Positions 5,024 through 44,813 of a stretch of 64,000 nucleotides of DNA are shown in pieces; position 1 is the stretch's first letter; each line of letters opens with the position of its first letter. The stretch spans positions 137,054 through 201,053 of the forward strand of contig JAZRLA010000015.1 in assembly GCA_045646605.1 (NCBI GenBank). The letters run 5' to 3'. Position numbers and translations under genes: made by a program. The stretch is from Candidatus Enterousia sp. (GTDB lineage Bacteria > Pseudomonadota > Alphaproteobacteria > Rs-D84). The notes below the pieces were generated by a model. That model worked only from the letters and a program-made list of their open reading frames with translations. It had not been told where the DNA came from and did not search any database.

Positions 5024-6250
5024 ATGAAATATGACTTACAAAAAATGTATTCACGTGCATTAAACCTGCGCGAACCATGGCTGAAACGCTGGTCGGATGC
5101 GCGCCGTTATACAATGCCAACAACCGATGAAGAAATCGCGACATTGTTTGATGGAACGGCGGCGGATGCGGCGGACAATCTTTCGGCATGTATGTATTCA
5201 TTGCTAACGCCACCGGAATCATTGTGGTTGAACCTTGTCCCTGAATCCGAAGAATCACCGGACCCGGTTGCGGCAACTATGGCATTACGTTCGAATCTTA
5301 ATGAATCTAACTTTTATACAACTGTTCATCAATGTTATATGGATTTGGTAACAATGGGAACGGCGTGTTTGTTTATGTCTGAATCACCAATTGGTGCGGC
5401 AAGTGCATTTAACTTTACGGCAATCCCGATGACGGACATCGCGATTTTGCCGAATGCGGTATTTCATACTGCAACCGTTACCGCCCAAGATGTCGCGCGC
5501 CGTTATCCTGAATGGACGCCACCACGTGCAATCGTTGACGCAATAAAGCAAAATCCTGAATATCAATTACGCCTGGTCCAGGCATTAATTGATACCGAAT
5601 TCACTGCATGGATAGATGCGGGTGGCAATATTGAAAACAATATTGTTGCGACCGGCACATTCGAAACAAACCCATACATCATATTCCGTTGGGCGTTGGC
5701 GAGTGGCGAACTTTACGGTCGCGGTCCAATTCTGCGTGCATTACCCGATATCAAAACTGCAAATAAAGTTGTAGAATTGGTCCTTAAAAATGCGACAATC
5801 GCGGTCAGTGGTATATGGCAAGCCGATGATGACGGGGTCATAAACCTTAGTAACATCAATTTAACACCTGGTGCAATAATTCCCAAAGCGGTGGGCAGCA
5901 CCGGCCTAACGCCACTTGCGACGGGCGCGAACTTTGATGTGTCACAGATAATTTTGAAAGACCTGCGTGAACGCATCCGCCACACAATGCTTGCGGACAG
6001 AATCGGCACGCTTTCGGACAAAGAAATGACCGCAACGGAAATACTTGCGCGGAACGCGGACATGCTGCGCATATTGGGCGCGACATATGGACGATTGCTG
6101 CACGAATTTATCCGCCCGCTTTGCGACCGCGGACTTCAAATTTTGGCGCGGCGCGGCGTAATCGACAAAATATCACTGCACAGTGATGCGGAATTAAAAT
6201 ACATCGCACCGATTGCACAAATGGTCGCGGAAAACGGCACATTGATATAG
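5024..6250 (+). CDS. phage portal (head-to-tail connector) protein
   Basis: 408-aa ORF directly downstream of the terminase with an RBS. Synteny and overall portal-like composition support the call. Confidence 0.5.
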   Translation: MKYDLQKMYSRALNLREPWLKRWSDARRYTMPTTDEEIATLFDGTAADAADNLSACMYSLLTPPESLWLNLVPESEESPDPVAATMALRSNLNESNFYTTVHQCYMDLVTMGTACLFMSESPIGAASAFNFTAIPMTDIAILPNAVFHTATVTAQDVARRYPEWTPPRAIVDAIKQNPEYQLRLVQALIDTEFTAWIDAGGNIENNIVATGTFETNPYIIFRWALASGELYGRGPILRALPDIKTANKVVELVLKNATIAVSGIWQADDDGVINLSNINLTPGAIIPKAVGSTGLTPLATGANFDVSQIILKDLRERIRHTMLADRIGTLSDKEMTATEILARNADMLRILGATYGRLLHEFIRPLCDRGLQILARRGVIDKISLHSDAELKYIAPIAQMVAENGTLI

Positions 6251-6896: not shown

Positions 6897-8183
6897 ATGA
6901 CAGAATTAAATAAAAAATTCGGCTTTACAGAAGAACAGTTAGAACAGTTTGATGACGATCTTAGAAATGGCGGAAGAGACGGTAGAAGAGCACAAATACC
7001 CAAAGAGGTTTTGGCGATACTGGGTGATTATTACGTGCAATTGATTGAAAAATCCGTTCAGGCGACCGAAAAAGGTATGTCACACGAGGATGACATAGCT
7101 TCAGTAAGTCACCCTTTGTGCCATATTTACGAAGATGGTTTGATGGCCAATGAATTATATCGCCCGATTGGTGATATTTTGTTAGATAAATTGATTGAAA
7201 AGGCCGAACAGGGGTATTACAGCCATGCAAATCGTTCAATAGATGGTTATTGGCGCAGTGTGAAAGATAATAAAGATGCCCAGAAAGGATTGAAAACGAT
7301 ATTAGAAAAACATCCTAACTATGCATTTGGGCAGAAATATTTATCATACATGAATGGTGCCAGTCCCGAAGACGAAATGGCGATGATACAAAGTTATATT
7401 GAAAACCCAGATATGTATTTTGTTACCACAATTATGGTCGATATTGATGGCACACTTATTCGAAACGGTAAAGCCAATGATAATTTGATAGATTCAATTA
7501 TTGGTCGTAAAAATATCGCCATTTATACGGGTGGGGACCCCGTGAGCCAAAAGAAAGTTCTTGTAAAGGCAATCGCAGAAAAAATTTTGGAAAAATTCCC
7601 TTTGATAAAGGAAGATTTTTCTGTGGATACTATTGTAAATATTTATTCCCAAGATAATGAACAGAATATAGCATTGCGTGAGAAGTTATCACGCACACTA
7701 AGAGACAAAATCTGGGGTTTGTTTTTCAACCAAGAACCTGGCAATAAAGTTGATGCCCATATGATAGATGATATGGCGAACCGGGCTAAACGTATTTTGG
7801 AATTTCTAAATCGTTTAACGGCAACAGGTGGTGATCAGATTAAAATTTATCCAAAACAGGCATTCGCGCAGGAAAATATTTGTTTGGCCGACACTGTGAT
7901 TGATGATACCCAACCAGCCGCCCAGGGAATGAAAAGTCTTTATTCAGCGTGTCTGACCCCAGGTGAATCCCCGTTTTGGGTGAAAGAGATCAGGGGTGTC
8001 GAAAGGGGAATATCCAAAGAACGCGAAATAACGGCAGAGCAAGCTTTTGCTATGTATCAGCAAAAATGTAAAGAAAACATGATTGCGGGCGCTAAACAAG
8101 TTGATAAGCTAAGTGCTACCGAACAGAAAGCAACGGCTTTTTCTGATTCGTGTAAAACCGATGTTAAAAAAACTACTAGATAG
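6897..8183 (+). CDS. hypothetical protein with a central HAD-like phosphatase motif
   Basis: 'FVTTIMVDIDGTLI' matches HAD motif I (hhhhDxDGTL). Large flanking regions are unknown. Bracketed by A elements. Confidence 0.45.
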   Translation: MTELNKKFGFTEEQLEQFDDDLRNGGRDGRRAQIPKEVLAILGDYYVQLIEKSVQATEKGMSHEDDIASVSHPLCHIYEDGLMANELYRPIGDILLDKLIEKAEQGYYSHANRSIDGYWRSVKDNKDAQKGLKTILEKHPNYAFGQKYLSYMNGASPEDEMAMIQSYIENPDMYFVTTIMVDIDGTLIRNGKANDNLIDSIIGRKNIAIYTGGDPVSQKKVLVKAIAEKILEKFPLIKEDFSVDTIVNIYSQDNEQNIALREKLSRTLRDKIWGLFFNQEPGNKVDAHMIDDMANRAKRILEFLNRLTATGGDQIKIYPKQAFAQENICLADTVIDDTQPAAQGMKSLYSACLTPGESPFWVKEIRGVERGISKEREITAEQAFAMYQQKCKENMIAGAKQVDKLSATEQKATAFSDSCKTDVKKTTR

Positions 8184-18983: not shown

Positions 18984-19068
18984 GTATACATCTCCTTGCT
19001 TATCGCACACAGGTTAGCAAATCCATTTGACATTTGGCAAGAAGAAATATAGAATACGCGATTGATAT

Positions 19069-19144
19069 GGGGTTGTAGCTCAGTTGGTAGAGCACTTGCA
19101 TGGCATGCAAGGGGTCGTCGGTTCGAGTCCGATCAGCTCCACCA
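19069..19144 (+). tRNA. tRNA-Ala (GGC)
   Basis: Cloverleaf with anticodon loop ATGGCAT, G3:U70 alanine identity pair, CCA encoded. Confidence 0.9.
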
Positions 19145-19150
19145 AAAATT

Positions 19151-19179
19151 CAAACCGCCGTTCGGCGGTTTTAATTTTT
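19151..19179 (+). terminator. rho-independent terminator after tRNA-Ala
   Basis: Hairpin AACCGCC-GTTC-GGCGGTT followed by a T run. Confidence 0.6.
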
Positions 19180-19265
19180 GCCGCGATCAGACGGATTTTT
19201 ACAAACGCAGTGCAGTAAAAATAAATTGCGAACGCAATTTGTCGTCACCCCGGCGCAGGCCGAGG

Positions 19266-19281
19266 CCGATCAGCTCCACCA
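19266..19281 (+). repeat. 16-bp direct copy of the tRNA-Ala 3' end (att-like)
   Basis: CCGATCAGCTCCACCA is identical to tRNA positions 19129-19144. Confidence 0.7.
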
Positions 19282-19433
19282 TCCGTCTTCGCTTCGCTCC
19301 GTCGCGATTGGTACAATCGGGCGGGGCGATGTGATTTTAATCACGCGAAGCGGATGTCGCGACGGAGCATACAAAGTATGCGTAGACGGACAAAGTCGCG
19401 AAGTAGCGTAAGCGCAGACGGACGGACAATAAA

Positions 19434-19673
19434 ATGTATTATGTATATATTTTGCAAAGTATAGATTCCCCAGATAAATTTTATATCGGATATACCGAAG
19501 ATTTGAAACGTCGTATGAAACAACATAATTACGAACATTTCGGACATACAGAAAAATATCGTCCGTGGCGACTGAAAGATTATTTTGCTATTGATAATGA
19601 AAATAAAGCAAAAAAATTTGAACAATATCTAAAATCTCAATGTGGTCGAGAATTTATAAAAAAACATTTTTAA
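19434..19673 (+). CDS. small stand-alone GIY-YIG nuclease family protein
   Basis: 'YYVYILQS...KFYIGYTEDLKRR' matches the GIY-YIG motif. 79 aa. Confidence 0.7.
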   Translation: MYYVYILQSIDSPDKFYIGYTEDLKRRMKQHNYEHFGHTEKYRPWRLKDYFAIDNENKAKKFEQYLKSQCGREFIKKHF

Positions 19674-19693
19674 TCGTACACGTCCAATGTCTT

Positions 19694-19936
19694 TTACAAC
19701 AACCCTTCGAAAAATCTTAAGATTTCGCGATTGTTAAAATCCAGCGCGCGCAGGATCCGTACCAAATCTATAATATCCAACCGACGTTCGCATGTTTCCG
19801 CACGCCCGACAAAGCAATGCGCAACCCCCAACTTTTTCGCCAAATCGCGTTGGGTTAAACCCTGTTGCATACGCAAAGATTTTAACGAATCTATCATCGC
19901 GCGATATTTTGGGTCAAAAATTGTTTTCCTGGTCAT
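19694..19936 (-). CDS. XRE-family HTH transcriptional regulator
   Basis: 'LRMQQGLTQRDLAKKLGVAHCFVGRAE' HTH. Confidence 0.6.
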   Translation of the reverse strand: MTRKTIFDPKYRAMIDSLKSLRMQQGLTQRDLAKKLGVAHCFVGRAETCERRLDIIDLVRILRALDFNNREILRFFEGLL

Positions 19937-20018
19937 GATATCATTTTGATATCAAAAAATACTTGAACTCAAATTGAGAACAAAGTAGAATGTTTTCCGG
20001 AAAAAGAGAGATAAAATT

Positions 20019-20771
20019 ATGAAAAAATTTATTATATTTTGCACATTCTTGTTTTGCACCGCCGCAATTGCACATACAATAAATTGGTATGTTGATGGTT
20101 CGTTATATCACACAACAACTTGCAATTCCGGCGACAGCGTAACACCACCAACCCCACCGACAAAATATGGGTACACTTTCCGTGAGTGGGAAGGATATAC
20201 GCAATTGGAATATATCGAAACTACTGGAACCCAGTATATTGATACTGGGATTTATCCAAACGGTTTAATAAGAATGACAGCTAAAATAGAAACTTTAAGA
20301 GCAGGAACAGAAATCTCCGCGTTTTCAGGTGTTATTCATAGCGGGTTTACAGGAGTATGGCAAGTTGTTTATTCTTATCAAGGAGGCGTAGATTTTAATG
20401 TTTCACAACAAGAAATAGTCTTTTCTCAATCATATGTAGGTATTCAGGATTTTGATATAGATCAAATAAACAAAACAATTATATGTAACGGTATCACTAA
20501 ATATATGACAGAAACACCAGTTGCTGTGGAACCTGGCCATTCTAATATTCCCTTGGGCAGATACCAATATGAAATCGGTCCAGGACCGAGCAATTTTTGG
20601 TATGGAAAAATATATTTTACCAAATTATATGACAACAACATCCTTGTCAGAGATATGATTCCCGTTCTTGATAAAAATGGTACACCATGTATGTACGACA
20701 AAGTTAGTAACACTTTTTTTTATAATGCGGGAACTGGTGACTTTATTGCGGGGCCGGCGGTTAGTGAATAA
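20019..20771 (+). CDS. secreted hypothetical protein
   Basis: Signal peptide present. Shares the 'TCNSGD' motif with the next ORF. Confidence 0.4.
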   Translation: MKKFIIFCTFLFCTAAIAHTINWYVDGSLYHTTTCNSGDSVTPPTPPTKYGYTFREWEGYTQLEYIETTGTQYIDTGIYPNGLIRMTAKIETLRAGTEISAFSGVIHSGFTGVWQVVYSYQGGVDFNVSQQEIVFSQSYVGIQDFDIDQINKTIICNGITKYMTETPVAVEPGHSNIPLGRYQYEIGPGPSNFWYGKIYFTKLYDNNILVRDMIPVLDKNGTPCMYDKVSNTFFYNAGTGDFIAGPAVSE

Positions 20772-21496
20772 TGAAAAAAGTTTTTGCTTCTTTATTATTT
20801 GTTTTGACTGCAAATGCCACATTCGCGGCATTCATGTGCGACGATGCAACAAATTATAAGGCAATATATGATATAAATTCTTATACTTGTAATTCGGGTG
20901 ATTTTTTACCGGCAAATTATGATAATGGGTGTGTTACCTGTCCGGCAAATGCAACATGTAATGGCGGAACATTTGTTTTTAATCCAAACAGTTTTCAAGG
21001 ATTAAACATAGGTAATAGTATAACAGGTGCAACAATGAATAATGTATGCGCGGATAATTTACAACCTAGTTGGCGGGCAATTTATATCCCAAATCAACAC
21101 ACATGCGCACCCGGATATTATATGCCGGCGAATACAGACGGTTGTGTTGTGTGTCCCGAAAATTCATACTGCGCTGGTGGAACATATACATTTAATGAAA
21201 CAACCGCCCAGGGCATAGTTGCGTGCGCATCGGGCCTGTTTGCGCCGACGGGAATGTGGGAACCCGAACAATGTGGCCGTGTATTGCACGTGGACAATGA
21301 TGTTATTTACCTGCGTTCAACAAAAAAGACCACACATGCGATACACTTTGATATGAACCATGATGGAACCGCGGATTATTTTGCAAATATGACAACGGCG
21401 GCCGTTCCAATGCATGCTGGTTCAACGCGCAAACTAAAGGTGCAATTTGGCGGGCAAACATATTCCGTCCATGATGATACAGTGACGGTTCCGTAA
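20771..21496 (+). CDS. secreted Cys-rich repeat protein (furin/ephrin-receptor-like Cys-rich repeats)
   Basis: Signal peptide. Two copies of a C..G.Y.PAN.DGCV.CP.N..C.GGT..FN module. Confidence 0.45.
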   Translation: MKKVFASLLFVLTANATFAAFMCDDATNYKAIYDINSYTCNSGDFLPANYDNGCVTCPANATCNGGTFVFNPNSFQGLNIGNSITGATMNNVCADNLQPSWRAIYIPNQHTCAPGYYMPANTDGCVVCPENSYCAGGTYTFNETTAQGIVACASGLFAPTGMWEPEQCGRVLHVDNDVIYLRSTKKTTHAIHFDMNHDGTADYFANMTTAAVPMHAGSTRKLKVQFGGQTYSVHDDTVTVP

Positions 21497-21547
21497 TATC
21501 TTTACTAACAACTTGCCTTTCGCTACTTTCTGTCCTATACTCAACCT

Positions 21548-22150
21548 ATGCTCTATATCATGCGACATGGCGAAACCGATTGGAATCTTGAAAATAAAAT
21601 TCAAGGTCAAAGCGATGTGCCACTAAATGATGCCGGACGAACCCAGGCATATGAAATGTCAAAAAAACTGTCGCGTTTTAATCCGGAATATATTATTTCA
21701 TCTGATTTGTCGCGGGCGGCGGAAACCGCGCAAATCATCGGCGATAATTTGAATCTGCGGGTCAAATACGATACGCGATTGCGTGAATATAATTTCGGAA
21801 TTTTGACCGGGCTAACCAGGGCTGAGCTGTCCCCACAAACGGTGGAATTATTCTTTATGAACCCAACAAAATTTGATGCCGAACCATTATGTGATGCCTT
21901 TGCGCGTGTTGGTGATTTTCTAAAAACTTATGACTATAACCCGCACAGCGCGGTTGTAACACACGGTGGTGTTATAAATTTTATGTTGTGTTATTTGGAA
22001 GACGACCATAACATCCATCCACATGCATATCTACAAAAATGCCTTTATACAAAAATCAATAATGCGGCGATATTGCGCATCAAAAATTTGGAATCGGGTA
22101 TATCGATACTTAAAAACAAAAGATTTTTTAAATTGCAAAGTTCGAAGTGA
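21548..22150 (+). CDS. histidine phosphatase family protein (phosphoglycerate mutase-like)
   Basis: 'IMRHGETDWN' RHG catalytic motif. Confidence 0.65.
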   Translation: MLYIMRHGETDWNLENKIQGQSDVPLNDAGRTQAYEMSKKLSRFNPEYIISSDLSRAAETAQIIGDNLNLRVKYDTRLREYNFGILTGLTRAELSPQTVELFFMNPTKFDAEPLCDAFARVGDFLKTYDYNPHSAVVTHGGVINFMLCYLEDDHNIHPHAYLQKCLYTKINNAAILRIKNLESGISILKNKRFFKLQSSK

Positions 22151-23162: not shown

Positions 23163-26100
23163 ATGCCGACGAATGAAAAATTAAACGAAAATACCAAGAT
23201 TTATGACAAAAATGTTGCCCGTTTTGCTAAGCGAATTGCCGCGGCTTATGGTGACGCCAAGGTTCGTCTTTTGGCTTCGCGCGATGTTCGTCGTGCGGTC
23301 CTTTTGCGCGATATTGATGCCATAAATAATGTTATTGCCAAGGTTCCACAAATGTCGGCGGGACTACGTTTGGATTTTTGCGATGCCTTTGTTGGTGAAG
23401 ATATGTCGGGACTGGATTTAGCCACACCGGCAATTTTGGCGGATGCGTATCGCGCCATTTCCGCGCGTGTCAAAGAAGGGGATGCAAAACAGCAAGAACG
23501 TCTTGATAAAATTGCGGCGCGTATCGACGATTTATCCGCGGATTTTGCAAATTCTGGCGGCATGGTGGTAAGCCAAAATGAATGGCCATTGGTTGATATG
23601 TCGAATATTGCCAATATTTATGAAGGTTTCGGCAATATGCTTGATGCACGTATCGTGGATGTGGACGTGGATAAAAATCCAGAAAAAGTCGCAGAAATGC
23701 AGGCAAACAAAAAACAGATAGAAACGGTTGTTTCGGATTATGATGGGTCTTGGGGGCTTGGAAAGTTGCGCGCCGAAGATGCACCAAAATTGGCGGACCG
23801 TTGGGACGAAATTTATGCCATGTTGAACCGTGCAAAAATCTTTGATGAAACCAAGGAAAAAACCGCAAAATGTAAGTTTTTGGATGCCCGTGGTAATATT
23901 ATTCCGCAGTTCAAGTCTAATAAACGTGGCGACACGAAAAGATATGAAGAATACGATGTTGGGTTCGATATTGCCAAAGATGGTCGACTTGCATCCATTG
24001 TTGAACTTGCGCGTCATAATGTCGCAAAAAGACACGTTGCAAATTTTGATGACAAAATCGATGAAGATACGCTTGAATCTGAATTAAACGAAGAAATTTT
24101 GAGTGTTTTATATGAGGTTTACGCCGCAGACCAAGTTGCCCAGGATGCAACCAAAACCCCAGAACAATTTTCTGACCCTGAATTTCGTGCGGAATTTATG
24201 ACCGCCCTTAATGAAATGGGTAAAGAAATTTCAGATAATGGATATAACGTCGCAATTGAAACACAAACCGATGCAACCGTTGGGTGGGCAGCGCGTATTA
24301 AAAGCAAATTAGGTGCGGCGACCAAGAAACTCGATGGATTGTGGACGCGTGCTAATCGGCCACTTGATAGAATTGATGATATGGCGGATGTTCGTATGTC
24401 GCGCGGGGCGGTTGCGCGTCGTAAAAAACGTCGTGAATTTTGTTGGCGTATTTTAAAGGGTTTTAACAGTTCGTTTATCGTAAGTGCGCTTATTACGGTG
24501 ATTGCAGCCGCGGCGGCGGCAAGGTTGGGCGTGTCACTTGCGTCGGGACTTGCCATGATTGGCGGCGGCCTTGCGCTTGGGATGATTGGTTTCCAAGTTG
24601 CGCGTTGGATTAAAAATCAAAAAAAGAATAATTTACCGGTCAGTTTAGAGGAGTTTTTCAAGGATAAACAGTTGGTACGTTCAATTGTGACCAGTGCGCT
24701 TGCAATTGCGGCCATGGGACTTGGTGCGGCTGGATTGGGTGCCGCCGCAATGACCGTTGGTGTTGGTGCGGCGTTACTTGGCGCATACAATAATGGACGC
24801 GGTGTATTCGAAGCGGCGCGTGATGTTAAAATGTCGCACCGTCAAAGAATCGCATGGGCGATTGCGAATGCCGGATCGGTCATTGCGGGTGCGCTTGGCG
24901 GCGGTTATGTTGGACGCGGATTGGTCAGTATGTTTAACCGTTTGTATCCGGGTAACACATTTTTCCAAAATAAAGAAACAGTTGAAGGACCAAAGCGCAA
25001 GGTTTCTGACGAAATCACGCACGAAAGGACAACCAGACATTATACAGATGATATGTTAAGAAGCGCCAAGGATGCCGTGGAAGATTGGTACGCGCACGAT
25101 TATCCAAATCATCCGGAAATATTGCAACAGGATATTGATGCCGTAAATCAGTACAATGCGGACCATGATACCAACCTTGATCCATATCGTATATTGCGCG
25201 CAATGAAAACATCGCAACCATCACGTTTGGTATATACCGAGGGTTGGACCAATGCACATAACATTTCCCAAGAAACAATTGCTCAGGCCGCAAATGCGGT
25301 TGGTGGTGGAACCTATAATCCCGCGGGCATAGAATCCGCACGTTTGATAGATGCAAATATGGGTACCCAAGGCGAAGTGGGCCCGGTTGGGGATTTTACA
25401 AATAAAACCTATTCACCGATTACGGAATTACCAACCGACAAAATCGAAACCGTTGTTGATCAACCGGCGGTTTACGAGCAAACATATAACGATACATACA
25501 AACCTGTTGATGTAAAGCCTGGATATGGCGCATTCGGAAATTACACGCCACGTGAACGCATTAATGATCGTATTGCTTCTTTCCTTGATCGTGTGCGTCG
25601 TGGTCGGCGTGCGGAATCAAAACCGACGTTGGAACCAAAACCGACATATGTTCCGCCAATTACCAGCATAAAAGAACCCGCAGACAAAAAATTACAAGGT
25701 TTTGAATCGGATACAAAAGATAAAAAGCCGACATATGTTCCGCCAATTACCCACATAAAAGAACATGCAGACAAAAAATTACCGGATATATCACTTGATC
25801 GTGTGTTTCCGAAACCGGCTTTTGACGATACCGAAGGGCACCTGCGTCGCATACGTGATGCATACCGGGATTTAAAAACCCAAGATGTACCTGTGGCCCC
25901 CGAAAAAACGGACGTCGCACCAAAACGTACGTCTGTTTTGGCGGTGACATACGCGCGTGCAAAAAAATGGGACGAATTGCATGACAAATTGGACGAAGTC
26001 AGGAATAAAATAATGAATTCTGCGCTTGGTGCGGCAAAAAGTGCGGAACTTAGGGCCCAAGAAAAGAATATTATCCACAAAATAGAACATTTATATAATT

Positions 26101-28262
26101 ATTTTGGACGGCCGTCTATGGATGAACTTGGCGCTGCACTTGCCAATGCGTATCGCCGTGAATATGTATATCATATGCGTGCAAAACCCGATGAAAAACA
26201 TTCTTCGCACAAGACGGTTCGTGATTGGAATGAAAAACACGAACGTTTGTTGAAAAAAATGGAATTGTATGGTTGGGATGAACCTTTGGACGGCGAAAAT
26301 CTTGATTTTGCCGCTCCAGTTATGGGCGTTCAGGCGCAAAAACAGGTTGTTCGTGGCCAAAAATATGAACAAGAACGTTTGCAACGTGAAGAGGCCGAAC
26401 AACAGAAAGTAAAAAATTTACGTTTGCCGGTCTTGATGTACAGACCTGAAAAAAAGAAAAATAGAAGATTTCATAAACCCTTTGAACAGGAAAAACCCAT
26501 AATTTTGGCGGACCTTGGGACGGCACTTGAAAATGTCCAGGCAAAGGATGGACAACAAGTTGGTGATAGAAAATATTTTGTTCCAGATGCCCTTAGAAAT
26601 TTGGCCGGAAACAAAAATTTGTTCACAGAACCGCTGATTGAAATACGCGGTGTGCCGGTTAACCTTATCGATTTAACGGGGCAGAATAACCCAATTACAC
26701 AAAGTGAAAATCGCGTAATGGTTATGGTAGATGTTGATGGATTGCGGATGCCGTTCTTCCTTGCCAATGGCGATGAAAAGTTTGAAAATATTAAACCCGG
26801 GAAATGGTATCCGGCATTCGATTTATCGCGTGACGGTTCGTGGCGTTTTTGGAAAACGGCGGAATACCTTGATTCGAAAAGAGGTGAAACATCCGAGAAA
26901 ATTGATGAGATATCCAAAACATTGAACGAAGTTATTGGTGATATAAGGAATTACAGGGATACCAAGGCAACAACCGAAAATGAAATACGCGGATTTGATG
27001 GTTTTGTCGGCGGTGTGGACGCCTTTGACCGTGTTGATCCCGATATCATAGTAAATATGACCGAACATCAACCAAATGATTTGGGCAAATATATGTATTG
27101 GTTAAGTTTGGGGGACAAAATGACGGGTGCGTATGTGCCATATATAAAATGGTATTTTGAAAATATTAAATCACCCGATTATGCCCCAGAAGAAAAAAAT
27201 TGGCTTGATGAAATAATTGAAAAACATCAGGACACCGTGCAAAACGTCAAGAGCACCGCCAAGAACGTCGTGCAAAACGTCAAGAGCACCGCCAAGAACG
27301 TTGTGCAAAACGTCAAGAACACTGTCCAGGAACGTCGTGAAAAACGTCAAGAACGCCGCCAAGAACGTCGCGAAAACCGTTCCGGCATTATATCAAATGC
27401 GGATGTCGAAAACGTGTTACCCGGGGACATGATGCTACCGGTTTCTGAACCTGTTCAAAAACCGATTGAAAAACACATTGATGAACCAAAGCCGGTTGAG
27501 CCGGTGGTTGCGCAAAACGGCCTTGGAACGGTGCTTGAAACCGCAATTTACAAAAATGAACACGACACTGGTGGTGAACACAAAGTGCCCGAATCTTTGA
27601 TCGATTTGGCACGTCGGCCGGATATTTTTTCCACGCCAATTACGACCATACGTGGTGTACCGGTGAAATTGGTTGATATCACGGGACACAATAACCCATT
27701 CACCCAAAGTGAAAATCGCGCAATGGTTATTGTCGATGTTAATGGCCAACGTTTACCATTTTACCTTGCCAATGGGAACGAACGTGGTGTGACGGGGGTC
27801 GCGGGTGTTTGGCGACCGGTTTTGACCCTTGATCGTACCGGCCGGTGGTATATAAATTCAAATGATCATGTTGATTCCAAAGAGTTAAATACGATCATCA
27901 ACGCGTTGAATGAACACATCGGCGACATACGGAATTACAGGGATAAAACGGCCACACATACACGAATGGAAATAACAGGGGACAAGGAAAATTTTGTTGG
28001 TGGTGTTGATGCCATTGACCAGGTTGATCCAAACAAAATCTTGGATATCATAAGGGCGGGCAACACAACCAATGATGATGACATTATATGGTGGCCTTAT
28101 GGTGGGGGTGCATCGTGGCATGCAAAACCGGGTGCCGTTGCAAAGTTTTTACGTGGGGTAGAATCGCCCGATTATCGCCGATCAAGAGGTTTTCTGGAAA
28201 AGTTAGAGGAAGGATTAGGCCGGCGGTTTAAACGGTTTAATAGGGATAAAAAATACGAATAA
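23163..28262 (+). CDS. giant (1699 aa) multi-domain membrane protein with duplicated C-terminal domains
   Basis: Continuous ORF. TM cluster at about aa 430-590. Tandem repeats at protein and DNA level. Two paralogous modules of about 170 aa. Confidence 0.6.
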   Translation: MPTNEKLNENTKIYDKNVARFAKRIAAAYGDAKVRLLASRDVRRAVLLRDIDAINNVIAKVPQMSAGLRLDFCDAFVGEDMSGLDLATPAILADAYRAISARVKEGDAKQQERLDKIAARIDDLSADFANSGGMVVSQNEWPLVDMSNIANIYEGFGNMLDARIVDVDVDKNPEKVAEMQANKKQIETVVSDYDGSWGLGKLRAEDAPKLADRWDEIYAMLNRAKIFDETKEKTAKCKFLDARGNIIPQFKSNKRGDTKRYEEYDVGFDIAKDGRLASIVELARHNVAKRHVANFDDKIDEDTLESELNEEILSVLYEVYAADQVAQDATKTPEQFSDPEFRAEFMTALNEMGKEISDNGYNVAIETQTDATVGWAARIKSKLGAATKKLDGLWTRANRPLDRIDDMADVRMSRGAVARRKKRREFCWRILKGFNSSFIVSALITVIAAAAAARLGVSLASGLAMIGGGLALGMIGFQVARWIKNQKKNNLPVSLEEFFKDKQLVRSIVTSALAIAAMGLGAAGLGAAAMTVGVGAALLGAYNNGRGVFEAARDVKMSHRQRIAWAIANAGSVIAGALGGGYVGRGLVSMFNRLYPGNTFFQNKETVEGPKRKVSDEITHERTTRHYTDDMLRSAKDAVEDWYAHDYPNHPEILQQDIDAVNQYNADHDTNLDPYRILRAMKTSQPSRLVYTEGWTNAHNISQETIAQAANAVGGGTYNPAGIESARLIDANMGTQGEVGPVGDFTNKTYSPITELPTDKIETVVDQPAVYEQTYNDTYKPVDVKPGYGAFGNYTPRERINDRIASFLDRVRRGRRAESKPTLEPKPTYVPPITSIKEPADKKLQGFESDTKDKKPTYVPPITHIKEHADKKLPDISLDRVFPKPAFDDTEGHLRRIRDAYRDLKTQDVPVAPEKTDVAPKRTSVLAVTYARAKKWDELHDKLDEVRNKIMNSALGAAKSAELRAQEKNIIHKIEHLYNYFGRPSMDELGAALANAYRREYVYHMRAKPDEKHSSHKTVRDWNEKHERLLKKMELYGWDEPLDGENLDFAAPVMGVQAQKQVVRGQKYEQERLQREEAEQQKVKNLRLPVLMYRPEKKKNRRFHKPFEQEKPIILADLGTALENVQAKDGQQVGDRKYFVPDALRNLAGNKNLFTEPLIEIRGVPVNLIDLTGQNNPITQSENRVMVMVDVDGLRMPFFLANGDEKFENIKPGKWYPAFDLSRDGSWRFWKTAEYLDSKRGETSEKIDEISKTLNEVIGDIRNYRDTKATTENEIRGFDGFVGGVDAFDRVDPDIIVNMTEHQPNDLGKYMYWLSLGDKMTGAYVPYIKWYFENIKSPDYAPEEKNWLDEIIEKHQDTVQNVKSTAKNVVQNVKSTAKNVVQNVKNTVQERREKRQERRQERRENRSGIISNADVENVLPGDMMLPVSEPVQKPIEKHIDEPKPVEPVVAQNGLGTVLETAIYKNEHDTGGEHKVPESLIDLARRPDIFSTPITTIRGVPVKLVDITGHNNPFTQSENRAMVIVDVNGQRLPFYLANGNERGVTGVAGVWRPVLTLDRTGRWYINSNDHVDSKELNTIINALNEHIGDIRNYRDKTATHTRMEITGDKENFVGGVDAIDQVDPNKILDIIRAGNTTNDDDIIWWPYGGGASWHAKPGAVAKFLRGVESPDYRRSRGFLEKLEEGLGRRFKRFNRDKKYE

Positions 28263-28292
28263 AAATATGGGGCCCCGCCCCATATTTTTTGT
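28262..28292. terminator. bidirectional terminator (perfect palindrome)
   Basis: AAAAATATGGGGCCCCGCCCCATATTTTTT. Confidence 0.6.
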
Positions 28293-42881: not shown

Positions 42882-44813
42882 ATGCTGCACACATCCGACT
42901 TTGATTTTGAATTACCCCCGGAACTTATCGCATCGCACCCACTTGCGCGTCGTGACGCATCCCGTATGTTGGTGGTGGAACCAAGTTCCCCTCCGTTGGA
43001 TGGGTGCCCGCAGGGCGGGGTGGGGGCGAAAGTTCCCCTCCTGTGGAGGGGTGGCCGAAGGCCGGGGTGGTCTTTTGAAGCGTGTAAATTCGGCGCAAAC
43101 TTCAAATTGCCTTTTAATAAAAATTTGGTGGAACGTGCCCGCAAACTTCGTAAAGCAGGTAGTTTACCAGAAGCGTTATTATGGAAAGAAATTAAAGGCA
43201 AGCAAGTAAATGGTTTAAATTTTGATAGGCAAAAAGTTATCGGAAATTACATAGTGGACTTCTTTTGCCCAGAATTGGGGATTGTTATAGAAATAGACGA
43301 TAAAACGCACGACTTTAAAGCTGAATATGACGAAAAAAGAGAAAAATATTTGCGCAGTCTTGGGCTGGAAATAATACACATCAGTGCCAAAGATGTTTTA
43401 GAAAATCCGGCATCCGTTGCGTTGTGGTTAAAGACCGCCCCGGCCTTCGGCCACCCCTCCACAGGAGGGGAACTTACCCTCTCCGACAAACATATACGCA
43501 ATTTTTTGGATTACCTGCGCCCTGGTGATGTGGTTGTGTTTAACAATTCGCGGGTGATTCCGGCGCGTTTTGATGCGGACGGTTATGAAATCACATTGCA
43601 TACCGCGGTTGATGACAAAAATTGGTGGGGCCTGTGTAAAAAATTCAATAAAATAAAAGTTGGCGATACACTTACCATGGCGGACGGCACAACAATTACG
43701 GTTGTGGACAAAGACGATGAAAGTGGCCTTTTGCTGCACTTTAATTGCGATAATGTATTTGATGTCTTGAACCGTGTTGGAAAGATGCCATTGCCTCCAT
43801 ACATGAAACGCGATGCCGAAATCGCCGATCAAACGCGCTATCAAACGGTTTATGCGGACCCACTTGGGTCAATGGCGGCACCGACGGCGGGTTTACACTT
43901 TACCGATGAATTGATGCGTGAAATAGAGGCACGTGGCGCGAAAATCGTGAAAATCACACTGCATGTCGGCGCGGGAACTTGGATGCCGGTCAAGACCGAA
44001 AATCTGTCCGAACATAAAATGCACAGTGAATGGTGCCAAATCACACCGCAGCAAGCCGGAATCATAAACGCCGCAACGCGTGTAATCGCCGTTGGCACAA
44101 CAACGCTCCGCACATTGGAATCCGCCGCGTCAAGTTCCCCTCCTTTGGAGGGGTGGCGGGTAGCACCCGCCGGGGTGGTTAGAGACACCGCAAACTATCG
44201 CACATTACCATTTAACCCAAAATTAAAAGAGCGTGCACGCGAATTGCGGCATGCGGGCAGTTTGCCCGAGGCATTATTGTGGAACGAAATCAAAAATAAA
44301 AAATTAAATGGTCTGGATTTTGATAGACAGAAAATAATTGGAAATTACATCGTTGATTTCTTTTGTGCGTCAAAATTTTTAGTTATCGAGGTTGACGATA
44401 AAACCCATGACACAAAAGTTGATTATGATAGGCAGCGTGATGAATATCTAAAATCTTTAAATCTTGCAGTGATACATATCCAGGCCAAAGATGTCTTGCA
44501 AGACCCTCACGGTGTTTTTAACTGGCTGTCTAACCACCCCGGCACTTCGTGCCACCCCTCCAACGGAGGGGAACGTGCGCGTGTCGCACCAATCTGCCAA
44601 ACCACAGATATCTTTATTACACCCGGTTACAAATTCCGCGTGGTTGATGTGTTGCTGACGAATTTTCATTTGCCACGGTCAACACTTTTTATGTTGGTGT
44701 CGGCGTTTTCGGGATTCGCCGAAATGAAGGCGGCATACGCCCACGCCATCGCCGAAAAATACAGATTCTTTAGTTATGGCGATTGCTGTTTGTTATTTAG
44801 AAAGGATAATTAA
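42882..44813 (+). CDS. queA: S-adenosylmethionine:tRNA ribosyltransferase-isomerase QueA with two in-frame insertions
   Basis: QueA N-terminus, middle and C-terminus are separated by two insertions of about 150-167 aa. Each encodes a DUF559-like domain. Total 643 aa against about 340 typical. Confidence 0.8.
   Translation: MLHTSDFDFELPPELIASHPLARRDASRMLVVEPSSPPLDGCPQGGVGAKVPLLWRGGRRPGWSFEACKFGANFKLPFNKNLVERARKLRKAGSLPEALLWKEIKGKQVNGLNFDRQKVIGNYIVDFFCPELGIVIEIDDKTHDFKAEYDEKREKYLRSLGLEIIHISAKDVLENPASVALWLKTAPAFGHPSTGGELTLSDKHIRNFLDYLRPGDVVVFNNSRVIPARFDADGYEITLHTAVDDKNWWGLCKKFNKIKVGDTLTMADGTTITVVDKDDESGLLLHFNCDNVFDVLNRVGKMPLPPYMKRDAEIADQTRYQTVYADPLGSMAAPTAGLHFTDELMREIEARGAKIVKITLHVGAGTWMPVKTENLSEHKMHSEWCQITPQQAGIINAATRVIAVGTTTLRTLESAASSSPPLEGWRVAPAGVVRDTANYRTLPFNPKLKERARELRHAGSLPEALLWNEIKNKKLNGLDFDRQKIIGNYIVDFFCASKFLVIEVDDKTHDTKVDYDRQRDEYLKSLNLAVIHIQAKDVLQDPHGVFNWLSNHPGTSCHPSNGGERARVAPICQTTDIFITPGYKFRVVDVLLTNFHLPRSTLFMLVSAFSGFAEMKAAYAHAIAEKYRFFSYGDCCLLFRKDN
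43031..43475 (+). mobile_element. TIR-flanked DUF559 endonuclease-domain cassette, in-frame in queA (copy 1)
   Basis: 42-bp inverted B elements sit at 43031-43072 and 43434-43475. Interior encodes a DUF559 domain ('GNYIVDFFCPELGIVIEIDDKTH'). An extra degenerate B half-copy lies at 42984-43027. Confidence 0.6.
44133..44576 (+). mobile_element. TIR-flanked DUF559 endonuclease-domain cassette, in-frame in queA (copy 2)
   Basis: Inverted B-like elements at 44133-44178 and 44535-44576. Second DUF559 domain ('GNYIVDFFCASKFLVIEVDDKTH'). Same ~444-bp size as copy 1. Confidence 0.6.

Follow-up and report, generated by a model that had tools for sequence, protein, structure and literature searches.

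Several described systems join a membrane anchor to a long, variable extension. TonB and TolA, to draw on general knowledge, combine an inner-membrane anchor, a proline-rich or charged, repeat-tolerant spacer and a small, globular alpha/beta C-terminal domain towards the outer membrane, and they are poorly conserved. The extended VirB6 proteins of Anaplasmataceae and TraG of the F plasmid carry a very long, repeat-bearing and fast-evolving extension on a polytopic core, in the case of VirB6 in a reduced-genome, partner-dependent alphaproteobacterium; mosaic surface antigens such as those of Wolbachia (wsp), Neisseria and Helicobacter have alleles assembled from segments, divergence far above that of the housekeeping genes beside them and coding repeats. 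These traits recur, some of them as predictions, in the gene analysed here, an intact open reading frame (ORF) of 1699 amino acids (aa) at 23163..28262 on the forward strand of a 64,000-nucleotide stretch of Candidatus Enterousia sp. (contig JAZRLA010000015.1, positions 137,054 to 201,053; hereafter the window). What makes this giant gene of interest is its extreme divergence, driven by recombination, at a fixed core locus. New are a dark family of ~180 cluster representatives, a confidently modelled C-terminal module with no solved analogue and an unexpected tie to a giant phage ORF, a testable pairing of the giant with an adjacent outer-membrane-like protein, and a small but clear example of a tandem DNA repeat that is read in two frames inside the same protein.

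The protein nevertheless departs from each of these systems. It has five helices where TonB and TolA have one, a conserved, predicted cytoplasmic domain of 435 aa and an extra membrane-proximal domain; it is 3-7 times longer, its C-terminal module appears to have been swapped and duplicated, and neither exbBD nor tolQR lies near it. A proline-rich spacer of the periplasmic TonB type is found (KPTYVPPIT and the PxPx repeats of the family), whereas a Pfam scan at E<=1 gives no TonB_C (PF03544), the module has no fold match in the PDB, and no TolA domain III or family profile matches in Pfam or NCBIfam. From VirB6 and TraG it differs by its large, predicted cytoplasmic N-terminal domain, by the lack of a TrbL/VirB6 (PF04610) or TraG_N match at E<=1 (TrbL/VirB6 is likewise missing from eight distant relatives) and by its position outside a type IV secretion operon, with no vir genes among the compared neighbours in 23 genomes. 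Mosaic surface antigens, finally, are outer-membrane or secreted proteins, whereas the prediction for the giant is an inner-membrane anchor.

Enterousia is placed in the order Rs-D84, whose members have genomes of 0.75-1.0 Mb and lack the tricarboxylic acid cycle, respiration, flagella and standard uptake transporters; dependence on partner cells has been proposed for the clade, by means left unexplained (PMC12306168). The giant gene, which takes up ~0.5% of such a tiny genome, is a prime candidate for this missing interaction machinery because it occurs in all 23 genomes compared and evolves by fast segment exchange.

Divergence and segment exchange at a fixed locus

The genome comparison comprised 23 fetched Rs-D84/Enterousia loci from as many species-level genomes, six of them Candidatus Enterousia sp. 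and the others unclassified alphaproteobacterial or proteobacterial metagenome-assembled genomes (MAGs), whose names in many cases refer to rumen, omasum or reticulum samples. Wherever a fetched contig reaches, the gene order is the same: an antiporter (minus strand), the giant gene (plus), a 315-aa outer-membrane-protein-like (OMP-like) gene (plus), ComM (minus) and a signal peptidase. The window itself is ordinary core genome, with DnaB, BamA, RseP, MurJ, QueA and AlaRS, and the presence of BamA indicates a diderm organism with an outer membrane. The GC content of the giant gene is that of the genome. Neither the window nor ~450 kb of related loci yielded a paralogue, and the gene is single-copy within the regions examined.

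That the ORF encodes a genuine, modular giant membrane protein, as a sequence-only reading of the window had it, is borne out, as it is uninterrupted by frameshifts and kept in relatives. The start codon is supported by an invariant M1 and a P2 conserved in at least 90% of 52 close homologues. The homologues that bear a name are hypothetical proteins of uncultured Alphaproteobacteria, the majority having none; P0001 is the exact protein in NCBI, and its 90% cluster has this one member. In one related MAG (CAMVAR010000038.1; L015 964-2565 and 2572-5430) the gene is split into two consecutive ORFs, either by a frameshift or stop in that lineage or by an assembly error.

For the closest species, identity to the window is 87-98% in the flanking proteins and 43-51% in the giant; the giant is diverging at roughly ten times the rate of its neighbours. 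The divergence is also patchy. Across homologues, conservation is high over aa 1-800, low over aa 800-1150 and high again in the module core, and aa 1350-1699 align only in the relatives P0002 and P0003. Against P0002, identity in 50-aa windows is 100% over aa 101-150, 46% over aa 151-200, 90-94% over aa 451-600 and 10-44% over aa 801-1150, with 50-64% in the first copy of the C-terminal module (module 1) and 76-94% in the second (module 2). The stretch at aa 151-200 is instead 84% identical in P0004, and P0014 is 66-82% identical over aa 51-300 and just 22-48% over aa 451-800. In the middle region (aa ~900-1100) identity to P0002 falls to 26-36%, compared with 80% over the N-terminal 800 aa, and P0023, P0014 and P0017 are closest. 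Where identity to P0002 drops, then, other relatives are the closest, in 50-aa windows as in region-wise BLAST.

Partial Mantel tests over 14 genomes, with BamA distance controlled, tie each end of the protein to the gene beside it. Co-variation links the module to the OMP-like gene downstream (r 0.45, p 0.0005) and the N-terminal domain (N-domain) to the upstream antiporter (r 0.36, p 0.009); none is seen between the two ends of the giant (partial correlation -0.12). The OMP-like protein, 63-84% identical between species, ranks as the second most variable at the locus (57-84% identity), and no other neighbour diverges in step with the module. These alignments and correlations show the giant gene to be an intragenic mosaic, each end of which shares its history with the adjacent gene, and this is direct evidence for recombination. 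We rejected the co-variation of module and OMP-like protein as proof of interaction: the N-domain-antiporter control gives a similar signal through linkage, and since linkage explains the correlation, a physical interaction is not provable from it. A role at the surface or in host interaction, suggested by the sequence-only reading, is partly supported: a hypervariable, mosaic and repeat-bearing distal half is what one would expect of a part facing an external partner, but there is no sign of passage through the outer membrane.

The family, its C-terminal module and a phage relative

An exhaustive search with a profile of the N-domain and transmembrane (TM) region returned 181 cluster representatives of 900-2245 aa, 124 of them below 1e-30. 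The members read have in common the N-domain, five hydrophobic helices and a post-membrane domain ending in G.GMFG...R.G..D. The Enterousia protein shows this architecture; it heads alignments A1 and A3 and is included in A4. Neither the whole protein nor its parts have a significant match in Pfam, NCBIfam, PDB sequences (single sequences and profiles) or Foldseek against the PDB, and eight distant relatives likewise give no match of the Pfam, NCBIfam or PDB type. A profile search of a word-indexed database with A2 and A5 returned one fragment each; it missed known members and is therefore uninformative. As far as seen, this uncharacterised family appears to be restricted to reduced-genome gut Alphaproteobacteria.

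The sequence-only reading described a soluble N-terminal region of about 420 aa followed by a cluster of Gly/Ala-rich TM helices, and the boundaries now stand at ~435 aa and aa ~436-585. Three motifs run through the N-domain of the whole family (LDFCDAFVGEDM, RIDDLSADFANSGGM and KFLD..G..IPQF), with column identities of 45-65%. Structure models, which cover the N-terminal 640 aa and the module, were made with AlphaFold2 (AF2). Over the N-terminal 640 aa they give helices at moderate confidence (predicted local distance difference test, pLDDT, 67), the N-domain being helical with a pLDDT of ~80-90 over aa 70-330; it has no Pfam, PDB or Foldseek match. The hydrophobic helices, at aa ~436-457, 459-480, 504-527, 528-545 and 563-585, form two tight hairpins and a fifth helix. 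In the post-membrane domain, W, G, G, R and D are invariant even among the distant members of A4, and no PDB or Pfam entry matches it.

The two paralogous C-terminal modules described in the sequence-only reading are real but larger than proposed, at ~235 aa and not ~170. The copies are 42% identical over 241 columns (E 1e-52), their DNA cores 76%. Structure prediction, which had been suggested as a check, gave a confident fold from a 30-row alignment (pLDDT 91.8, predicted TM-score 0.90), in which a beta-rich first half of seven strands precedes helices and two more short strands. Foldseek found no analogue of it in the PDB (best E 1.7, TM-scores <0.2), and as Pfam holds no match either, the module is no mundane known domain. 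Its profile matches 60 of 197 proteins; the match is C-terminal in every case, and a second copy is found in P0001-3 alone. It is confined to the Enterousia-type branch, and the C-terminal tails differ between clades.

How the second copy arose can be read from its relatives. Module 2 is 78-79% identical to copy 2 of P0002 and P0003, and 42% to copy 1; together with ~60 aa of upstream linker it is 64-67% identical to the single module and linker of the P0006/P0007/P0011 type. For module 1 the nearest types are P0002, P0014 and P0008 (49-53%), and behind it stand a truncated form of the usual basic post-module tail and then a P0006-type linker. The two-module form thus has the look of two allelic 3' cassettes fused in frame, and not of a simple local duplication. 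P0002 and P0003 carry the same cassette fusion.

A conserved N-terminal half, a variable C-terminus, an appended second cassette of another allele type and, in other clades, different C-terminal domains together recall a polymorphic toxin, in which a conserved N-terminal delivery part bears an exchangeable C-terminal toxin and a new C-terminus is placed behind the old. We consider this very improbable. All 60 modules are homologous under one profile, where unrelated toxin folds would be expected, and their invariant or near-invariant residues (W, L, G, P, F, V, I) are of structural and not catalytic types, with no catalytic set among them; Pfam and NCBIfam show no toxin, trafficking or N-terminal repeat domain, and the downstream gene, in every locus that reaches it, encodes a signal-peptide OMP-like protein, which does not look like a small, variable immunity protein although it co-varies with the module, as linkage would explain equally well.

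Coding repeats lie both before and between the modules. Tandem peptide repeats occur in 43 of 164 family members, and 45 of 53 such repeats follow the TM cluster, most of them as proline-rich PxPx spacers ~250-300 residues past the fifth helix (TM5). The KPTYVPPIT duplication noticed earlier sits at the same position, as two 59-nt copies (25637-25695 and 25724-25782) that are 92% identical and 87 nt apart. The 33-bp repeats between the modules are a tandem array as claimed, but not three perfect units: Tandem Repeats Finder (TRF) gives a period of 33, 4.3 copies and a score of 212. Units 1 and 2 (27237-27269 and 27270-27302) are identical except for one synonymous base; unit 3 (27303-27336), at 34 nt, has diverged, and unit 4 (27337-27369) is 85% identical in an offset 55-nt register. 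The first three encode VQNVKSTAKNV-type 11-mers; because unit 3 has gained one nucleotide, the fourth is read in another frame and encodes EKRQERRQER. What had been described as VQNVKSTAKNV repeats followed by a separate RRQERR tract is thus one DNA array read in two frames.

An ERRQERR-type basic tract is the usual post-module tail of one-module homologues. Its frame is probably the ancestral one, and the VQNVK units would be a frameshifted expansion of such a tract. Within the array, at 27348-27371, there is an inner 12-bp periodicity (CAAGAACGCCGC, encoding QERR), which suggests hierarchical growth in which a 12-bp unit first gave rise to the 33-bp one and the frame switch came later. P0002 and P0003, the relatives with two modules, have no counterpart of the array, which makes it a later expansion specific to the query lineage. 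Two exact-pattern scans of JGI metagenomes for the repeat junction and its flank, meant to find strains with other repeat numbers, returned 0 matches. The 11-residue period is shared with LEA proteins, apolipoproteins and synucleins. However, the relevant profiles stay below their cut-offs (ApoO 14.4 bits against 31.4, ApoLp-III 14.0 against 36.3, LEA_1 12.2 against 25), and the giant has 2.7 copies only, derived by frameshifted duplication of an Arg/Glu-coding tract; a lipid-binding role of these units would be speculative.

By sequence, one relative of the module was found outside the family. A pattern scan of IMG/VR found its core in a single 57-kb viral contig (IMGVR_UViG_3300007512_000043), within an ORF that scores 64 bits against the module profile and matches aa 1125-1262 in blastp at E 4e-12. 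The common core reads VVDVDG.RIPFYL..G...PGKWYP...L..IA..LD..IGDIR, and a PAPEPAPEP spacer stands upstream of the module-like domain. This ORF (L030 7307->20399) runs for more than 4360 codons, is open-ended at the fetched edge and contains Gly/Ala-rich hydrophobic segments. It has no Pfam or PHROG match, and lies co-directionally downstream of a gene with a match to a family of virion structural proteins (phrog_3287, E 2e-27). Among predicted viral structures (BFVD), the module matches a 1233-aa LT_GEWL-domain protein (E 8e-5, probability 1.0), a 1434-aa podovirus protein and the 979-aa 'structural protein' of Cellulophaga phage phi4:1; the matches, which include A0A6J5QDC6 and A0A8S5MLI3, have Foldseek probabilities of 0.87-1.0 and TM-scores of 0.36-0.40. 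By sequence and predicted fold, the module therefore appears to be a mobile domain also present in a giant phage ORF beside a virion structural gene.

Is the whole protein then of phage origin? It could be what is left of a giant phage virion protein, a tape measure or ejection protein, or a co-opted copy of one, given the homology of the module core, the fold matches to large phage proteins, a T7-type portal gene 17 kb upstream and a match to phrog_167 ('tail length tape measure protein', E 3.4e-6), the only PHROG match of the protein. The sharing is limited to the module, however: profiles of the N-domain, TM and post-TM regions score nothing on the phage ORF, a viral-contig scan with the N-domain/TM alignment was empty, and tblastn found nothing in 50,697 phage genomes or in a collection of plasmid genomes. 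The gene has a genome-like GC content, is flanked by the same chromosomal genes in all 23 species and, unlike tape measures, does not sit in a tail-gene module. We rejected the tape-measure identity itself, as phrog_167 has 0 matches in P0006 and P0037, spans the repeats and is probably compositional. Domestication of a phage protein is, in our view, quite improbable.

Predicted topology and a tentative envelope-spanning architecture

Which parts of the protein face the cytoplasm was judged from the mean loop charges across ~160 family members. Positive residues (K+R) exceed negative ones (D+E) before TM1 (5.6 against 1.4), in loop 2-3 (7.4 against 2.6) and in loop 4-5 (3.3 against 2.2); in the 20 residues after TM5 the balance is reversed (1.3 against 2.5). 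Read with the positive-inside rule, this pattern places the N-terminus inside, followed by two hairpins and a fifth pass that would leave the C-terminal ~1100 aa outside the cytoplasm. From charge bias and composition we thus infer an N-in/C-out inner-membrane topology. Cysteine depletion was considered as a further marker and dropped. The three Cys of the protein all lie within aa 1-435, with 0 in aa 436-1699, and family-wide they make up 0.14% of residues after TM5 compared with 0.26% in the N-domain; this is only a twofold effect, and both halves are Cys-poor.

If TM5 did not span the membrane, both large regions would be cytoplasmic, and the protein could be a membrane-anchored organiser of polarity, division or chromosome tethering. 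TM5 is indeed weakly hydrophobic, the charged Arg/Lys/Glu-rich regions resemble cytoplasmic linkers, the low Cys content of both halves weakens the Cys argument, and the gene lies among housekeeping genes. Such a scaffold on the cytoplasmic face still seems decidedly unlikely to us: the net charge turns negative after TM5, against positive balances in the three other loops, PxPx repeat spacers are a typical feature of segments that span the envelope, the module recurs in a giant phage ORF adjoining a virion structural gene, and neither tenfold faster evolution nor allele swapping would be expected of a housekeeping scaffold.

From the charge bias, the proline-rich repeat spacers and the phage link, we tentatively propose an envelope-spanning protein anchored in the inner membrane, whose stalk would hold out an exchangeable module for binding close to the peptidoglycan or the outer membrane. 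Such a design would resemble TonB or TolA, built from unrelated parts. The helical N-domain of ~435 aa would lie in the cytoplasm and the five Gly/Ala-rich helices would span the inner membrane. Outside, the stalk would lead from the conserved membrane-proximal domain through a proline-rich, repeat-prone spacer to a charged middle region, and at its end the globular alpha/beta module would reach into the zone of peptidoglycan and outer membrane. In this position it might bind a variable envelope ligand, the adjacent OMP-like protein being the most obvious candidate partner, and recombination would diversify the binding end. In the query lineage, a second module of another allele type would have been added, together with its own linker, as an in-frame continuation of the first after the truncated basic tail of the latter, and the junction would then have expanded by tandem duplication of a 33-bp unit read in two frames.

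A number of observations weigh against this proposal. The topology is drawn from statistics on sequence only, and with TM5 the least hydrophobic helix (mean Kyte-Doolittle value 0.94), an even-pass topology may hold instead. Arg/Glu-rich tracts are unusual as Sec export cargo, and such extreme variability is uncommon in periplasmic proteins. The supposedly cytoplasmic N-domain is also mosaic and fast-evolving, where a purely 'exposed tip' model predicts otherwise. The co-variation of module and OMP-like protein is about as strong as that of N-domain and antiporter, so that plain linkage explains it and the binding partner is only putative. The phage link consists of one contig plus weak fold matches, and the structure models are limited to the N-terminal 640 aa and the module.

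Chlamydial Inc proteins and type III translocators insert hydrophobic hairpins into a partner membrane, and the giant might likewise be an exported effector or translocon, secreted by a type I or IV system to a partner cell, where its hairpins would insert and its variable C-terminus engage targets. Its two tight hydrophobic hairpins recall such proteins, although there are five hydrophobic helices in all and no single bilobed segment, and the loop charges in ~160 proteins fit the positive-inside rule as for the producer's own membrane. The partner-dependent lifestyle proposed for the clade, the conserved basic C-terminal tail and hypervariability and mosaicism throughout the protein, beyond the tip, speak for export. 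MacA/MacB/TolC-like genes do follow the distant member P0052; no secretion system, however, stands beside the gene in the Enterousia loci or the other distant loci, and Pfam and NCBIfam show no RTX or other secretion-substrate features. Taken together, we regard export to a partner cell as unlikely.

A more far-reaching version of the inner-membrane-anchored stalk is a long shot. For gut Alphaproteobacteria such as these, with tiny genomes and a poor set of transporters, the family may provide the principal contact device across the envelope: the cytoplasmic domain would be coupled mechanically or allosterically, through the stalk, to an exchangeable module docking on the adjacent, fast-evolving OMP, the complex would serve as an interface to partner cells or as a phage receptor complex, and phages would have copied the module into giant virion proteins of their own to exploit that interface.

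Neighbouring genes and feature coordinates

The features of the protein and of the region just downstream are collected in Table 1. The perfect palindrome at the end of the gene, which the sequence-only reading took for a terminator, is a hairpin that starts at the stop codon; by its sequence it is a predicted intrinsic, bidirectional-looking terminator, which makes the giant gene monocistronic here.

Table 1. Positions, in window coordinates, of the domains and repeats of the giant gene and of the elements that follow it
Feature	Position	Strand	Remarks
N-terminal domain, aa 1-435	23163..24467	+	predicted cytoplasmic, all-helical; family-wide conservation
Five Gly/Ala-rich hydrophobic helices	24468..24917	+	Kyte-Doolittle scan
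Post-membrane conserved domain, aa 586-820	24918..25622	+	ends G.G(M/A)FG...R.R(I/V)G/A..(L)D(R/K)
Pro-rich spacer with duplicated unit, aa 826-873	25637..25782	+	KPTYVPPIT(S/H)IKE(P/H)ADKKL
Charged, poorly conserved middle region, aa ~900-1100	25860..26462	+	mosaic hot spot
C-terminal module copy 1, aa 1105-1340	26475..27182	+	core aa 1161-1266 (26643-26960), IRGVPV...IGDIRNYRD
33-bp tandem array, 4.3 units	27237..27380	+	TRF
C-terminal module copy 2, aa 1443-1671	27489..28175	+	core 27648-27944; P0006/P0007/P0011 allele type
Basic C-terminal tail RRSRGFLEKLEEGLGRRFKRFNRDKKYE	28176..28259	+	family consensus G......R.R.RF....(D/E)-rich end (alignments A1, A2)
Hairpin AAAAATATGGGGC-CCC-GCCCCATATTTTT	28261-28289		perfect 13-bp stem; starts at stop codon; A and T runs flank
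OMP-like gene, 315 aa	28381..29328	+	signal peptide, C-terminal ...LGLRIEF

The divergently oriented upstream gene is a Na/Ca exchanger (PF01699, E 5e-64), in line with the Ca2+/Na+ antiporter named earlier. Its pairing with the giant carries no functional weight, because the rest of the gene order is equally conserved and distant members lie in other neighbourhoods. The OMP-like gene has no Pfam match, and all fetched loci that reach beyond the giant gene carry it. A conserved operon partner was also looked for among distant members and rejected, the neighbourhoods of P0052, P0127 and P0062 all being different. In P0052, the most distant homologue of the first search (L024 12075-16567), the giant is followed by MacA-, MacB- and TolC-like genes that are not found in the Enterousia loci.

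Some further ORFs of the window stand out from their surroundings. The portal gene upstream (5024-6250, plus strand) matches the T7-type phage head-to-tail connector (PF12236, E 9e-80) and might be left over from a prophage or have been domesticated as a particle gene; it was noted along with an unassigned ORF at 6897-8183, and the surrounding stretch is housekeeping. Just upstream of the hypervariable region, ~19010-21548 looks like a strain-specific insertion. Its small ORFs 20019-20771 and 20771-21496 have signal-peptide-like N-termini and common Cys motifs (CNSGD), one of them has a sub-threshold match to the Listeria-Bacteroides repeat (Flg_new), and neither has a counterpart in the related loci compared. 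The histidine-phosphatase gene beside the antiporter (21548-22150, plus strand) is likewise unusually divergent, falling into groups of 41-46% and 60-66% identity to the window that do not follow BamA distances, which suggests two allele classes. Farther downstream, the QueA ORF (42882-44813, plus strand; 643 aa) carries matches to the endonuclease-like DUF559 and REase_MTES_1575 at aa ~447-549, an unusual fusion or insertion.

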